From: Desulfomonilia bacterium
GTDB lineage: Bacteria > Desulfobacterota > Desulfomonilia > UBA1062
Direction of reading: 5' to 3'
Length of the DNA: 64,000 nt
Assembly (NCBI GenBank): GCA_963664325.2
Contig: CAXXDQ010000004.1
Coordinates: 1-64,000 of the forward strand
Positions within the stretch are counted from its first letter, which is position 1. Each line of letters starts with the position of its first letter. Below, one piece after another: positions 10,975 to 21,004 of the stretch. A program made the translations under genes and the position numbers. The notes under the pieces were generated by a model, which worked only from the letters and a program-made list of their open reading frames with translations, was not told the origin of the DNA and did not search any database.

Positions 10975-13455
10975 TTGATGAAATGGGGAATTGTGAGAAG
11001 AAAGATATGGAGTTTGTACAGGCAGAGAGGCTCAATGATATCTCTTTGTTTCATTATCCAAATATACCCTCAGTATATTTTAGATGAGAAAGGGGATATT
11101 ATCTTTATAAATAATTGCGCAATTGAGATTTATGGCCACACAAAAAAATTTTATATCGGGAAGAATTTTTTAACTCTTGCAGCGCCGCGCGCAGCGGATG
11201 TAAGCCAGATTGAAGCAAAAATAAAAAAGGCATTTGACGGGGAACCGCAGTCAGGTTGAGTTCGGGGGACTAATAAAGAATAATGCAAAACTGCCAAAGC
11301 GACTCATTCTTTTTTCCGTGCATCTACCTTAAAAATAAATCAATTCTATGTCTTGAATATAATATCGCTGAAAATATAATCTCTGAACATAACCTGAAAA
11401 TCTCCGAAAATAGGTACAGGATTATCGGTGAGATGATTTCTGATTTTGCATATTCTTGTGTACATAATGAAAATAAAGGCTTTCAGGTAGATTGGATTAC
11501 TGATTCATTTTATTCGGTGACCGGTTTTACTGAAGAGGTATTACTAAAACACAAGTGCTGGCTTTTTTGCGCACATCCGGATGAACGAAATCAAATCTTA
11601 AAAGAGTTTAATGCATTAGTTCCTGGGCAGGAGCTGGTGAAGGAATTTAGAATTATTGATTCGGATAATAATATACATTGGCTGAACAACTATGTCCGCT
11701 GTGTATTGGATGAAAATGATTCGACGGTCTTCAGGCTTTTTGGAGCCGCAAGAGATATAACCGAAAGAAAAACAGCAATTGAAAAGCTGAGAGAAAAAGA
11801 AGATATTATTTCTAAAATAAATGACTGCCTGTTATGCCTTTCATCAGATCATAACCAAAATATTGCTGATATTGTTGCCCTTTGCGGTAAATTACTTCAT
11901 GCAGACTGTGCACTTTACAACAGACTTGATGGAGAAATGCTTAATACAATTGGCTGTTGGAATGCTCCCCCCGATTTTAAAAAGAAGATTCTCCCCAGGG
12001 GCATCTTTGCTATGATGTAATAAACGGGAAGGCTGGAAATACACTTATCGTTACCGATTTGCCCAACTCAACTTATAATGAAACCGATCCGAATGTAAAA
12101 ACTTATGGCTTAAAAAGCTACATAGGCTACCCGGTTCGTTTTGCCGGTGTTAATATTGGTTCTTTATGCGTGGTTTATGTTAATGAATATATTCCAGGTG
12201 ATGAAGACCTAAAAATACTTGGTATTTTGTCTGTAGCTATTGCCCAGGAAGAAGAGAGACAACAGGTAGAGACTGAGTTGAGAACAGCCAAAGAAAAGGC
12301 CGAAGAAATGAGCCGCCTTAAATCTTCTTTCCTTGCAAATATGAGTCATGAATTGCGCACCCCGATGCATGGTATTCTTGGTATGGCCGAGATTTTGAAC
12401 AGCCAGTCTACAAATAATGAAACTAAAGAAATGACAGATATGATTTTAACATCCGGCAGAAGGCTGTTAAATACATTGAATATGATACTTACTTTAGCCA
12501 GAATAGAAGCGAACAAACAGGAGATCAGACTAAAAAGTATAAAACTATTTCAAACGGTGATGCATAGTGTCCGCCTATATACTCCTATGGCTCTCGAAAA
12601 AAACCTGAGTATAAAGTTCGTATCTATTTCTGACGATATTGAGTTTCTTACCGATCCTCAGCTGTTTGATTCCATTTTGAATAATTTAATTGATAACGCG
12701 ATAAAATACACCGAAACCGGGGGTATATCGGTTTACGCGGGGAAAGAAATAAGAAATGGGGAAGAGTCAGTTGTTATTAAGGTTGAAGATACGGGAATTG
12801 GCATTACTCCCGAAAATCAACAGCTCGTTTTTGATGAGTTCAGGCAGGTTAGCGAAGGATACGACAGAGCCTTTGAAGGAGCTGGTCTGGGGGCTTTCAA
12901 TAATCAGAAGGTATATAGATCTTTTGAATGGAAGTATAACTTTAACAAGTTTGGTTGACAGGGGTTCAACATTTACAGTTATTCTTCCTAATCATCCGAA
13001 ACAAAAGGAAGAAAAAATTGTTTCAGGGAAAAAGATTACGGAAGATATTTCAATCCCTGGGAAATTAGGAGAAAAAGTTAAAATAATTCTGGTTGATGAT
13101 GACCAGATTACTATTAATATTGTAAATATCTGGCTGCGGAATTTTTATGATTTCGATTATGCTAAAGATGTTGCCGCCGCAATTGAAAAAATTAATAATA
13201 ATGATTACAAGGCGATATTACTGGATATTAATTTAAGAAAAGGGGAGAGCGGAATAACACTATTGAAAGAGATCAGGAAAAAAAACCGCTTACAGAAATA
13301 CTCCTGTAATTGCGTGTACTGCCTATGCTATGCCGGGAGATGAAAATAAATTGATATTTGAAGGATTTGATCATTATATTTCAAAACCGTTTCAGAAAAA
13401 GGAAATATTTGAGCTTTTAGAATTTGCTTTAAAAAGTAAGATAAAAACAGTATAA
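10975..13455 (+). CDS. Hybrid sensor kinase PAS-PAS-GAF-HisKA-HATPase-REC, broken by several frameshifts (errors or pseudogene)
   Basis: ORFs 10975, 11283, 12059 and 12756 plus a tail to 13455 (IACTAYAMPGD...YISKPF) together form a paralogue of the upstream kinase. Confidence 0.7.
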
Positions 13456-15887: not shown

Positions 15888-16818
15888 TTAGTGTCCTTCG
15901 CTATGCGCGTCGTCATGCAAATCATTTGGCTCAAGGTGCGTCACAATATTAACAGATGATTTAAGCGAATACTTAATTGCCATTTCTATTTCAGTAGCAA
16001 TCATATGCGCCTCTTCAAGCATCGTATTATGGGGGAAAAGGAGATGGAATTCTATCCAGGTGGTATCACCGCTTTCCCTGTATCTTAACTGGTGAAACCC
16101 AGATTTCTTTCTGTCGTCTCTTTTTCGATGATTTCTTTTATTGAATTACCAAGCACCGCGTTTCCTTCATCCATTAAACGGCAATTGACTGCCGAATTAA
16201 ATTACCCCCTGACCAAAGAATATTAAGCGCGGCAATAATAGCAATTAAAGGATCAAAAGGGAGCCAGCCTGTTAAAAGAGTTAATCCCAGTCCCGCCACA
16301 ACGCCGAAACTTGTCCATGAATCTGTAAGTACATGCTTGCCGTTTGCAACCAGAATAAGTGAATTTGTCTTTTTCCCTTTCCATACCAAAAACCAGCCGA
16401 GGAACAGGTTTATAACCGATGCTCCAAATGTGAAGTACGCACCTTTATCAAGATTTGTAAGTTCTATACCGGTTATCAAGCGCTGGATTGAAATAAATAT
16501 AATATAGGCCGCCGCCAAAATAATTAAGCCCCCTTCAAAACCCGCCGAAAAGTAGCTTATCTTACTATGTCCGTATGGGTGGCTCGCGTCAGCCGGCTGA
16601 AGTGTAAGCCAAAGACTGAAGACAGCAAAAGCCACCCCGATAATATGAACTATTGATTCCGCCGCGTCTGAAAGTATTGCGCTTGAGCCGGTTAGATGAT
16701 AGGCGTACCATTTCATTACAAGCATAAGCAAACCAAAAGCGAACGATACGCGTATTGCGAAAAATTTTCCCGCGCTGTCATTATTTTTCTTTATGTTTTC
16801 CATAATTAGCGAACTCAA
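15888..16818 (-). CDS. Cation diffusion facilitator (FieF/CzcD-like), frameshifted near 16175
   Basis: SAILSDAAES, HPYGHSK, HVLTDSWTS; the dimerisation domain (EAHMIATEIE...THLEP...HDDAHSEGH*) continues in another frame. Confidence 0.88.
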
Positions 16819-16833
16819 TTTTATTGATGAAAA

Positions 16834-17134
16834 TTAATCGAACAGGTTGCCGAATAACTCGGATAATCCGCCGCGTTTTTTATGACGATAATCATTTTTA
16901 TATCCATGATTCTTATAAAAATCATCATCATGATCATCATCATCGTGCCTGTAATGCTTATCATTATTATCATAATCTTTCCGGCTTGTGTCTTCTTCCT
17001 GCGAGCGGCTGATTATTTTTTCCAGCTCTCCCTTATCAAGCCATATGCCCATACATTTGGGGCATACATCAATTAGTACATCTATCTTTATAACTTCATT
17101 CATCACAACATCGCAATTAGGGACATTTTTTCAT
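16834..17134 (-). CDS. zf-TFIIB-type zinc-ribbon protein with a His/Asp-rich tail
   Basis: IDVCPKCMGIWLDKGELEKI motif. The first CxxC (MKKCPNC) is recovered from ATG 17134 if one C is removed at about 17120. SD GAGG is present. Confidence 0.8.
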
Positions 17135-17219
17135 AGAAAACCTCTTTGTTTAAAATTTAGTTTGAGCAGCGGAAAATTTCCCTGCTGTTTTGTTTTCGTG
17201 TTTTTTTAGAGCGGACTGA

Positions 17220-17480
17220 TTAGGATATTACCGGAGGTTTCCAGATCGGATATATTCTTTCAGGAATATTTATTTTGCTTTCGTTGAAGCTAATAAGAAT
17301 GAATTCGGGGATTAGTATATTTTCTTCTGTTGTGTTGATAAAATCTTCATCAAAGTGAATATGATTATACTCAATAGACGAAACCGGCCTTGAGTGGTCG
17401 CTCAATACCGGATGCTGCGGTTCCGTGATGTTCCAGAAACCGATGATAAAAAATAATATGACAGTGGTCTTTTTTAACAT
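17220..17480 (-). CDS. Small hydrophobic-N-terminus protein ending IWKPPVIS; putative leader/arrest peptide
   Basis: ATG 17480, hydrophobic VILFFIIGFW, four His residues, C-terminal W-x-P-P; it is the first gene before the Zn-ribbon and CDF genes. Confidence 0.6.
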   Translation of the reverse strand: MLKKTTVILFFIIGFWNITEPQHPVLSDHSRPVSSIEYNHIHFDEDFINTTEENILIPEFILISFNESKINIPERIYPIWKPPVIS

Positions 17481-17585
17481 GACGTAATATAATTGTTGAA
17501 AAGATAAAATTAAATCCATTTCGTACTGAAATGGAAAAATGATTCTCTGAAATGATGAATTTTATTTATGGTGAAAAATTATTCA

Positions 17586-17614
17586 TTGACAATAAAGTCT
17601 ATATGATTTATGTT
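17586..17614 (+). promoter_or_regulatory. Sigma70-type promoter, copy 1
   Basis: TTGACA-17 bp-TATGTT, also present at 20801-20829. Confidence 0.6.
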
Positions 17615-17718
17615 TGAATCCATATTTGTTCCTCATATTAATTTCGGAGGGGACAAACGATAGAGAGGGAGAGTTGTTTGACCGAAATATTTTAAGCGCG
17701 GGGTGAGAGCTGCGCTTG
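17607..17718 (+). ncRNA. Candidate structured 5' leader RNA, copy 1
   Basis: Identical to 20822-20933; two hairpins and a possible pseudoknot. Confidence 0.45.
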
Positions 17719-17793
17719 AATACATTCGCAGCATTTTTATCCAAGGGTGTGCTGTATTTAAATAACCATTTAGATTATTTTTACGGAGGTAAA

Positions 17794-19041
17794 ATGAGGA
17801 CCGGATTAACAATTCCGCTTGTGCTATTGTGCGCCTTTCTATCGTATGCGCAAAGAGACAATCTCTTCAGTACATATAAAATTCCTACTTATTCATTCTA
17901 TGAACTTCATGTGGCGGGGCAGGATTTCTTGACTTATTTCAGGAATAAAATAGATGAAGATCATAATGATGCTGAAACTGTGACAATAGATTTAGCCCTG
18001 GGAGGCCGTTATTTGAAACAGTCCCCCCTTTATAATGGTGATATTTCAGGTTATCTATCCTATTATTATGATAAGTCAAAGCGAAGTGAAATATCCTCTT
18101 ATTCCGGGATGACGCCTGTTTATGGTGACGTGATTAATGAAAGATCGGTTTCGGATGTTTACCTAAACTCATTTAACGATTTTTATTTGAGAGATGAAAA
18201 GGGGCTATTCCTTTTTGGGGATTTAAAGGGGGCTTATCATTTTTTTACTCCCAGCAAAACAGGATACTCGACTATTGAGTTTTCATCCGGTATCGGCTAT
18301 GGCCGAATTGTAAATTTAAAAAGTGTTGTTCAGGCTTATATCATAGGGCGTGAATCCGGCATTGATTTATCAGAGGAAGCAATTTCGAAACTGACCGAAA
18401 TTATTGAAAAGAGACGTGATGGTTATTATTCGAAAAACAGAGATAATGCGGATATTGAGTTCTACCGGGAGATAGATTCTGTAGTTAAAAAGCCGGAAAT
18501 GACAGCTAAAATTCAGCAGGTCTTTAATTCGGCCTTATATCAAACAGCTGAGAGAAGATCCGGTTTAAAATTTAAATTGGGTTCCCGCTACACCAACGAA
18601 GATGGTGAAAATTCTGATACAAAATATCAAAACCTTGTTGATATAGCTGCCAGTGTTGAATATGCCGCTCCTATCGGATTCGATAAACAATTCTATATAT
18701 CCGTTTCCTATTTAAATAATACAAATAGTCTTAAGGGGAAGGCGCCGATGTTATCAGTTTCCAGTTCTTTTTCAATAGATCACAGTTATACATGGTCTTC
18801 CTCAATAAATGCAAAACTGATCTCGGTATTTCCTGAAAATGAAGCGCAAAGATCAAATTATAGTATTTCTCTTACTTCAAATTATGTTTTGTTGAACGCC
18901 CTTTCGGTTTTTGGATCATTAGAGTATTCAAATACGATTTTTTACAATTGGGGCTCACTTAGTGAAATTGCTGCATATTCTTATCACCCCGAGTATTCAA
19001 AAACGCAGCTGCATCTCGGGGTAAAATATTATATCCTTTAA
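17794..19041 (+). CDS. Putative outer-membrane beta-barrel protein, paralogue A
   Basis: SD GGAGG before ATG 17794, signal peptide, amphipathic strands, GYGRI motif, C-terminal LHLGVKYYIL. Confidence 0.75.
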   Translation: MRTGLTIPLVLLCAFLSYAQRDNLFSTYKIPTYSFYELHVAGQDFLTYFRNKIDEDHNDAETVTIDLALGGRYLKQSPLYNGDISGYLSYYYDKSKRSEISSYSGMTPVYGDVINERSVSDVYLNSFNDFYLRDEKGLFLFGDLKGAYHFFTPSKTGYSTIEFSSGIGYGRIVNLKSVVQAYIIGRESGIDLSEEAISKLTEIIEKRRDGYYSKNRDNADIEFYREIDSVVKKPEMTAKIQQVFNSALYQTAERRSGLKFKLGSRYTNEDGENSDTKYQNLVDIAASVEYAAPIGFDKQFYISVSYLNNTNSLKGKAPMLSVSSSFSIDHSYTWSSSINAKLISVFPENEAQRSNYSISLTSNYVLLNALSVFGSLEYSNTIFYNWGSLSEIAAYSYHPEYSKTQLHLGVKYYIL

Positions 19042-20729: not shown

Positions 20730-20821
20730 CTATTCAATTTAGTTTAAGAAGAAATTGCGCTCTGAAATGATTAATTTTCTTTATAGTGAAAAGTTATTCA
20801 TTGACAATAAAATCTATAAGG

Positions 20822-20933
20822 TTTATGTTTGAATCCATATTTGTTCCTCATATTAATTTCGGAGGGGACAAACGATAGAGAGGGAGAGTTGTTTGACCGA
20901 AATATTTTAAGCGCGGGGTGAGAGCTGCGCTTG
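20822..20933 (+). ncRNA. Candidate structured 5' leader RNA, copy 2
   Basis: 112/112 identical to 17607-17718. Confidence 0.45.
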
Positions 20934-21004
20934 GATGACAACACAACATTTATTTATAAAAGGCTTTATTTATTTACACCACTGATTAATTTAAAGGAGC
21001 ATAT

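Follow-up and report, generated by a model that had tools for sequence, protein, structure and literature searches.

The stretch of DNA analysed here, hereafter the window, comprises 64,000 nucleotides (contig CAXXDQ010000004.1 of assembly GCA_963664325.2, positions 1 to 64,000), and its minus strand carries a small open reading frame (ORF) followed by a Zn-ribbon gene and a gene for a metal exporter of the CDF family (Table 1). The small ORF runs from an ATG at 17480 to the TAA at 17222-17220 and encodes an 86-aa peptide, MLKKTTVILFFIIGFWN...IWKPPVIS, in which a Lys-Lys pair at the N-terminus is followed by the hydrophobic run MLKKTTVILFFIIGFW and histidines occupy positions 23, 29, 40 and 42. 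A first-pass annotation, made from the letters of the window, had described just such an ORF with a hydrophobic N-terminus, four histidines and the IWKPPVIS tail, and had proposed that ribosomes arrested at its Pro-Pro codons switch on the downstream genes. The description holds in each of these elements, and all of its coordinates are correct. Our analysis suggests that the ORF is likely a stalling leader that has a new motif and belongs to a type already known; the switch proposed for it, in which the Shine-Dalgarno (SD) sequence of the next gene is occluded, has weaker support.

Table 1. Features of the small ORF and its downstream genes in the window.
Feature	Position	Strand	Basis
Small ORF, 86 aa, positions including the stop codon; candidate exported stalling leader (IWKPPVI family)	17220..17480	minus	ORF listing and homologues
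Putative export signal or membrane anchor, residues 1-22	17415..17480	minus	Lys-Lys, then a 12-residue hydrophobic run
H-x3-D-x2-F motif, HIHFDEDF, residues 40-47; candidate metal ligand site	17340..17363	minus	H40, D44 and F47 invariant
IWKPPVI, residues 79-85; proposed arrest site	17226..17246	minus	11/11 complete C-termini
Anti-SD arm GGAAACCUC in the W-K-P-P codons	17234..17242	minus	Sequence and folding
SD arm GAGGUUUUC	17136..17144	minus	GAGG 6 nt before the ATG at 17134-17132
Local hairpin AGCAGGGAA / UUCCGCUGCU in the 85-nt spacer	17165..17186	minus	9 pairs, 1 bulge, -10.0 kcal/mol
Zn-ribbon gene (PF13453), His/Asp-rich tail, frameshifted	16834..17134	minus	Profile match; intact homologue in locus L020
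CDF metal exporter gene (Cation_efflux and ZT_dimer), broken	15888..16803	minus	Domain matches; comparison with loci L001 and L002

A rare gene family with three conserved patches

A word-index search with the ORF alone returned nothing but the ORF itself, and an exhaustive homologue search found two relatives, P0003 (86 aa, 49% identical), the closest homologue, which has the same IWKPPVIS tail, and P0004 (79 aa, 42% identical). Six long proteins (P0005-P0010, 251-3455 aa) matched the hydrophobic N-terminal half in several short stretches and were set aside. A contig scan with the first alignment (A1) yielded no relative; its patterns were too specific to close members and missed even the member described next. 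Scanning the contigs of species-representative genomes with the CDF protein gave 79 loci, nearly all of them in metagenome-assembled genomes (MAGs) of Ignavibacteria or Bacteroidota. A tblastn search of these 79 loci produced one weak match, which lies directly upstream of the CDF gene in an uncultured Melioribacter MAG (locus L002), where the ORF encodes 84 aa and ends in KIWKPPVIV. A profile including this member recovered P0012, P0013 and P0014, and the P0014 cluster contributes five further sequences. The family comprises 12 sequences from about five lineages, and we regard it as a real but rare gene family, present in a few Ignavibacteria. None of the seven aligned members matched a Pfam or NCBIfam profile at E-values up to 10.

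The ORF listing of the window gives the gene a longer, 99-aa form that starts from an upstream ATG at 17519. We favour the start at 17480 because six of the seven aligned sequences begin with MLKK or MKK. When over-long start calls are set aside, the members are 84-90 aa long, and outside the conserved patches the most distant ones are only 25-28% identical to the window peptide. In the N-terminal segment, K3, K4 and I8 are invariant in the alignment of seven, and residues 1-22 are likely an export signal or a membrane anchor, judging from their composition. The H-x3-D-x2-F motif is found in all 12 sequences, and H40 is the only one of the four histidines that is invariant; the alignment contains no conserved cysteine. 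IWKPPVI is exact in 10 of the 12 sequences and reads IWKPPVL in one more, while P0004, on a contig of 1,475 bp, ends just before the motif; hence every complete C-terminus (11/11) bears IWKPPV[I/L]. The distance between the motif histidine and the first proline is exactly 41 residues in all ten sequences in which it was measured. The residues after Pro-Pro differ both in sequence and in number (VIS, VIV, VINSSFNC and VINSPFKG), which indicates that the motif is recognised independently of its distance to the C-terminus; an arrest site should behave in this way.

A comparison of the codons of the motif between the window and L002 shows three synonymous differences among the seven shared IWKPPVI codons (ATC/ATT, CCG/CCT and ATA/ATT) and a sense change, Ser to Val, in the eighth. 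Together with the unrelated DNA of the two spacers, these differences indicate selection on the peptide and not on an RNA arm. Conservation in the family is concentrated where a regulatory leader would need it, namely in the N-terminal Lys-Lys with its hydrophobic run, in H-x3-D-x2-F and in IWKPPV[I/L]. AlphaFold2, given the shallow alignment of seven sequences, predicted a single helix, N-terminal residues 3-18 (mean pLDDT 57.7, pTM 0.22).

The same patches could belong to an ordinary small protein, secreted or membrane-anchored, for instance a periplasmic metal partner or chaperone of the CDF exporter, in which IWKPPV[I/L] would be a contact or turn motif and no arrest would take place. The export-type N-terminus and the invariant His, Asp and Phe would suit such an accessory protein; so would the position of the ORF next to the CDF gene in both loci with readable DNA and the lack of conservation of the SD helix described below. 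We also know of no EF-P literature that establishes KPP as a strong arrest motif. We nevertheless hold this explanation, the main rival of a stalling leader, to be somewhat unlikely, since conservation is limited to three short patches, outside which identity is 25%, no fold is predicted past the N-terminal helix (with the shallow alignment above), and the tail past the motif varies in length and sequence. Moreover, an exact spacing of 41 residues has no obvious sense in a disordered mature protein, and it fits a chain threaded through the ribosomal tunnel.

Genomic context and the downstream genes

DNA could be read for two loci of the family, the window and L002, and in each of them a CDF exporter gene follows the ORF on the same strand. 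In the window, 85 nt separate it from the ATG of the Zn-ribbon gene, which precedes the CDF gene, and in L002 the ORF is directly upstream of the CDF ATG with a spacer of 150 nt. Among the 79 CDF loci from related Ignavibacteria and Bacteroidota, 77 are without this ORF, which implies that CDF does not need it and that the ORF is a lineage-specific add-on. The first-pass annotation had advised collecting small ORFs ending in W-x-P-P upstream of metal transporters. A regular expression for such ORFs or for CutF-like small ORFs, applied to the 79 CDF loci in six frames, gave 21 matches, among which those in the window and L002 alone belong to the family. The ORFs listed upstream of each of the 79 CDF genes likewise contained nothing comparable besides these two.

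A neighbourhood that arose by coincidence would also account for part of these observations: the small gene would be independent, the hairpin at 17186-17165 would end its transcript, and the Zn-ribbon and CDF genes would have their own promoter. The spacers of 85 and 150 nt could contain promoters, a hairpin of -10.0 kcal/mol follows the ORF in the window, and most CDF loci do without the ORF. The hairpin, however, has no U-run, is followed by CAAACUAAAUUUUAAAC and was not called terminator-like, so its reading as a terminator was ruled out, and a terminator-like site was not found in the 150-nt spacer of L002 either. Since, furthermore, two lineages whose peptides are just 25% identical both keep the ORF in front of the same exporter family, we consider a chance arrangement improbable.

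The Zn-ribbon gene encodes a TFIIB-type protein with a His/Asp-rich and Lys-rich tail that ends in ...LSELFGNLFD. Among the other 79 loci, only one (L020) has a Zn-ribbon gene beside CDF, and the gene of the window therefore looks inserted between the leader and the exporter. The Zn-ribbon protein may be a cytoplasmic metal-binding partner.

As assembled, both downstream genes are interrupted. The Zn-ribbon gene starts at 17134-17117 with ATG AAA AAA TGT CCC TAA, that is, with the five codons MKKCP and a stop, and its frame resumes in +1 as NCDVVMNEV...; the CCC run (17122-17120) has a surplus base, which divides the first CxxC of the zinc ribbon. The homologue in L020 (1630-1944) is intact and begins MKCPQC.... 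Alignment of the CDF gene with L001 and L002 shows a 1-nt gap at each of two places, near 16181/16180 and 16101/16100. A hybrid histidine kinase gene on the plus strand (12059-13455) has both its HATPase_c and its receiver domain split across frames. At least five single-base frameshifts fall within 6 kb, and this cluster suggests an indel-prone assembly with long-read indel errors; gene decay is less likely. A programmed +1 frameshift at CCC-UAA of the Zn-ribbon gene was also considered and is unlikely, because the L020 homologue is intact and the CDF and histidine kinase genes are likewise broken by indels.

Comparison with known arrest leaders

The closest known systems include the small exported proteins CutF and CruR. 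CutF of Rhodobacter capsulatus has a Sec signal and a CxxxC motif located 45 residues before a C-terminal Pro-rich motif; a stem-loop shields the SD of cutO, and the stalled ribosome opens it (Ozturk et al., mBio 2023, PMC9973294). Under the definition of the same authors, a CutF-like protein has fewer than 150 aa, carries Pro-Pro among its last 15 residues and has a signal peptide at its N-terminus, and its gene has a same-strand neighbour within 1000 nt; the class includes clusters with His only, is well represented in Bacteroidota and has neighbours that serve metal homeostasis (PMC9973294). CutF and the CutF-like system are treated further in a preprint (bioRxiv 10.1101/2025.02.05.636593). 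The window peptide shares three of these four features, with 86 aa, Pro-Pro at residues 82-83 of 86 and the next gene after 85 nt (150 nt in L002), and its N-terminal MLKK with the hydrophobic run is a likely candidate for the fourth, a signal peptide, with no clear cleavage site.

Like CutF, the window peptide is a small protein with an export-type N-terminus and a metal-type motif some 40-45 residues before a C-terminal Pro-Pro, and its gene has a same-strand metal-homeostasis gene downstream at a distance of no more than 150 nt. The next SD of the window is covered by a predicted structure that a ribosome held at the Pro codons would open, as in CutF; this structure is not conserved in L002. 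The family also differs from CutF in having neither a DUF2946 match nor a conserved cysteine, the candidate ligands being one His and one Asp, and IWKPPV[I/L] stands in place of the Pro-rich or PPP motif of CutF with its flanking positive residues. Finally, the downstream gene encodes a CDF exporter, a class of neighbour that the available text of PMC9973294 does not name; the term 'Cation_efflux' was not found in its supplement either, as covered by two small text files.

CruR (Bp2923) of Bordetella pertussis, a DUF2946 protein, is encoded by a copper-responsive upstream ORF (uORF) and carries CXXC and RAPP motifs 45 residues apart, the latter 3 residues from the C-terminus (Roy et al., mBio 2022, PMC9426467); the first-pass annotation was correct in its statement of the copper-responsive uORF and the RAPP motif. 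Its arrest has been demonstrated in vitro (PMC12992588), and the spacing of 45 residues between metal and Pro motifs in CruR and CutF is conserved and functionally important (PMC9426467; PMC9973294). The read-out of CruR is Rho-dependent termination and not SD occlusion, of which CutF is the example (PMC9426467; PMC9973294).

The small ORF resembles CruR as a uORF for a predicted exported and poorly structured protein, with low confidence in the AlphaFold2 model beyond the N-terminal helix, with Pro-Pro 3 residues before the C-terminus and with a strict spacing between the metal and Pro motifs (41 residues here, 45 in CruR). The intergenic region is long in both systems, 162 nt in CruR and 150 nt in L002. 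In contrast to the window peptide, CruR has CXXC and RAPP, metal relieves its arrest, and its target is a TonB-dependent importer. Rho acts in CruR at a C-rich unstructured region, whereas the spacers here have only a slight excess of C over G (18 vs 12 and 23 vs 19). The family is not a detectable member of DUF2946, as no profile match was obtained with the seven members and neither CXXC/CxxxC nor RAPP is present. The window peptide thus resembles the CutF and CruR leaders in layout and not in detectable sequence homology.

In SecM, a Trp precedes the arrest point by a few residues, as it does in IWKPP. SecM, MifM, VemP and the RAPP-type monitoring substrates share with the family an N-terminal export or insertion signal and a conserved C-terminal arrest motif (PMC7897499, PMC10987492), and in this class, too, ribosome stalling opens a stem that occludes an SD. 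Their targets are components of Sec or YidC and the signal that they sense is pulling force, whereas the target here would be a metal exporter; the downstream genes of the window encode a Zn-ribbon protein and a CDF exporter and no protein-localisation component, in contrast to the substrates that monitor Sec or YidC. The Bacteroidota clusters described in PMC10987492 end in NSP-stop or NAP-stop, and 'WPP', 'WKPP' and 'KPP' are absent from its main text. A text search of the literature for WKPP, IWKPP or WKPPV gave nothing relevant by title among the matches listed. Likewise, among the matches listed, no link was found between a CDF exporter and a stalling leader, which does not prove its absence from print. 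With two diverged members, a protein-atlas feature search gave CzcI/DUF2946, DUF6769, DUF6660 and SecM_small as the nearest named clusters (0.87-0.90), which are leads only. A RiPP precursor or a sorting signal was also considered as a reading of the small ORF and dropped, as no processing genes are nearby.

Predicted pairing between the motif codons and the next ribosome-binding site

The first-pass annotation had gone further and made the W-K-P-P codons themselves the anti-SD of the downstream operon, so that stalling would expose the SD of the Zn-ribbon and CDF genes. This would be a special case of a stalling leader, holding at least for the lineage of the window. In the window these codons read UGGAAACCUCCG, and the arm within them, GGAAACCUC, spans bases 2-3 of the Trp codon, the Lys codon, the first Pro codon and the first base of the second. 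It forms nine contiguous pairs, one of them G-U, with GAGGUUUUC (17242-17234 with 17144-17136), and the local hairpin at 17186-17165 is nested between the two arms; both the pairing and the hairpin are present as had been noted.

Several results speak for this model. The SD/anti-SD helix occurs in both the minimum-free-energy and the centroid structures of the region, with pair probabilities of 0.59-0.91 in a context of 201 nt. The SD core has an unpaired probability of 0.03, lower than in each of the 13 SD-bearing comparison genes of the window (0.09-0.61). A ribosome whose P site holds Pro82 would sit exactly over the pairing partner, the nested hairpin shortens the loop, and CutF works by SD shielding (PMC9973294). 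When a ribosome at Pro82 was simulated by masking 31 nt, the unpaired probability of the SD rose from 0.03 to 0.33.

The other results weigh against this model. Even under the mask the SD stays mostly paired elsewhere, because GGGAAAUUUU (17182-17173, minus strand), which lies within the local hairpin and can form a GU-rich helix of 10 bp with the SD, can replace the anti-SD arm; the SD has two mutually exclusive upstream partners, GGAAACCUC and GGGAAAUUUU. The 141-nt region is not more stable than expected (z = -1.18), as 25 of 200 shuffled sequences fold at least as well. Among the 29 other gene starts of the window, three have an upstream helix of at least 9 bp and three reach a duplex energy of -12.7 kcal/mol or lower, equal to or better than that of the pairing. 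About four to five of the nine pairs come free with such a Pro-Pro, because CCUCC (CCU CCN) is an anti-SD sequence, complementary to any SD by definition. The initiation region taken as a whole has an unpaired probability of 0.43, typical of window genes (0.15-0.69). As assembled, the SD leads a frame of five codons, and an SD-like core is present in only 13 of 29 window genes.

The comparison with L002 bears on the claim of a conserved anti-SD. L002 retains UGGAAACCUCC in its motif codons; no complementary arm was found in its 150-nt spacer, and its CDF start is without an SD. The fold of L002 is unremarkable (z = +0.86), and the intergenic DNA of the two loci is unrelated. The W-K-P-P codons are thus not supported as a conserved anti-SD, as L002 has neither the partner nor the SD nor a related spacer. 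The SD-occlusion pairing is not a property of the whole family and could be a read-out specific to one lineage; in the exact form first proposed, we regard it as plausible for the lineage of the window alone, at a rather low probability. RNA families of the Rfam type gave no match at gathering score in the whole window, and a permissive scan of 16700-17900 gave only snoU43 (E = 0.1), which we took as chance.

Neighbouring features of the window

A direct repeat of 192 nt, with copies 92% identical at 17545-17736 and 20760-20951, adjoins the 5' side of the small ORF. Each copy precedes one of two paralogous outer-membrane-like genes, which start at about 17790 and 21005 and whose coding sequences are far less alike. 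The repeat contains a promoter-like site, TTGACA-17-TATGTT, and a GC-rich hairpin; on the plus strand it folds with z = -2.69 (2 of 200 shuffles as good), with no Rfam match, and it may be a shared promoter with a structured leader. Just upstream of the start of the small ORF, on the same strand, the hairpin TCCATTTCAGTACGAAATGGA with a T-rich run (17515-17535, minus) looks like a terminator, and there is no obvious upstream gene for it to terminate. The G+C content of the window steps up at about 34000: it is about 0.34-0.41 before this point and about 0.45-0.54 in the second half, where SD-like cores are also commoner. A compositional island or a join made during assembly could account for the step.

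Discussion

We propose that the 86-aa ORF encodes a co-translationally exported, metal-responsive leader that pauses translation at IWKPPV[I/L] and regulates the CDF genes in cis, by analogy with CutF and CruR, and we give this reading a probability of roughly 0.45. The conservation of the motif, of its spacing and of the gene order supports the stalling leader of the first-pass annotation, whereas the anti-SD placed in its W-K-P-P codons is not kept in L002.

We infer export, metal binding, arrest and an effect on the downstream genes as successive steps of one process. The Lys-Lys pair and the hydrophobic segment would target the nascent chain to the membrane. At the proposed arrest, modelled on CruR, Pro82 would occupy the P site and Pro83 the A site, and with the ribosome there, H-x3-D-x2-F, 41 residues upstream, would be just out of the exit tunnel. 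Binding of a metal to this motif, perhaps one of those that CDF proteins usually transport (Zn, Co, Cd, Fe or Mn), would alter the duration of the arrest, and the occupied ribosome would in turn alter downstream expression. In the lineage of the window, the likeliest read-out would be exposure of the next gene's SD by a stalled ribosome that sits on GGAAACCUC. The read-out in L002 must differ; there the ribosome might, for instance, shield the 150-nt spacer from Rho or from RNases.

In addition to the folding results given above, several points count against such a leader. Arrest at KPP-V is a proposal drawn from the conserved sequence, and we are aware of no assay of WKPP as a site of stalling. 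The family has no detectable sequence homology to DUF2946 or to any of the Pfam and NCBIfam families searched. The synteny comprises two loci, nearly all related CDF loci are without the ORF, and in this assembly frameshifts interrupt the downstream genes. The disorder predicted by AlphaFold2 is weak evidence, as it rests on seven sequences. Moreover, a spacing of only 41 residues would leave the His/Asp motif close to the tunnel exit or inside the SecY channel and not clearly in the periplasm.

If the leader does act in this way, its novelty would have several parts, which we advance more tentatively than the leader itself. IWKPPV[I/L] would be an undescribed arrest motif, and the peptide a cysteine-free metal-sensing chain with His/Asp ligands. 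It would be the first described case of uORF control of a CDF exporter and the first such leader in Ignavibacteria. Through the fixed spacing of 41 residues, the metal site would come to lie at the tunnel exit or the translocon when the ribosome is on Pro-Pro, and in the lineage of the window the stall codons would double as an anti-SD.

Metal-sensing nascent chains such as CutF and CruR are a recent discovery and have so far been tied to copper, to cysteine motifs and to DUF2946. Should the ORF prove to be merely a small accessory protein, the finding would be a rare, lineage-specific gene beside a transporter. If the proposed leader is real, an unrelated family would have the same three-part layout with His/Asp ligands and a CDF target, pointing to convergent or very old reuse of the layout for other metals. 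IWKPPV[I/L] would then be a new tunnel-interacting motif for the field of arrest peptides, and it would provide a simple sequence signature for finding further leaders.

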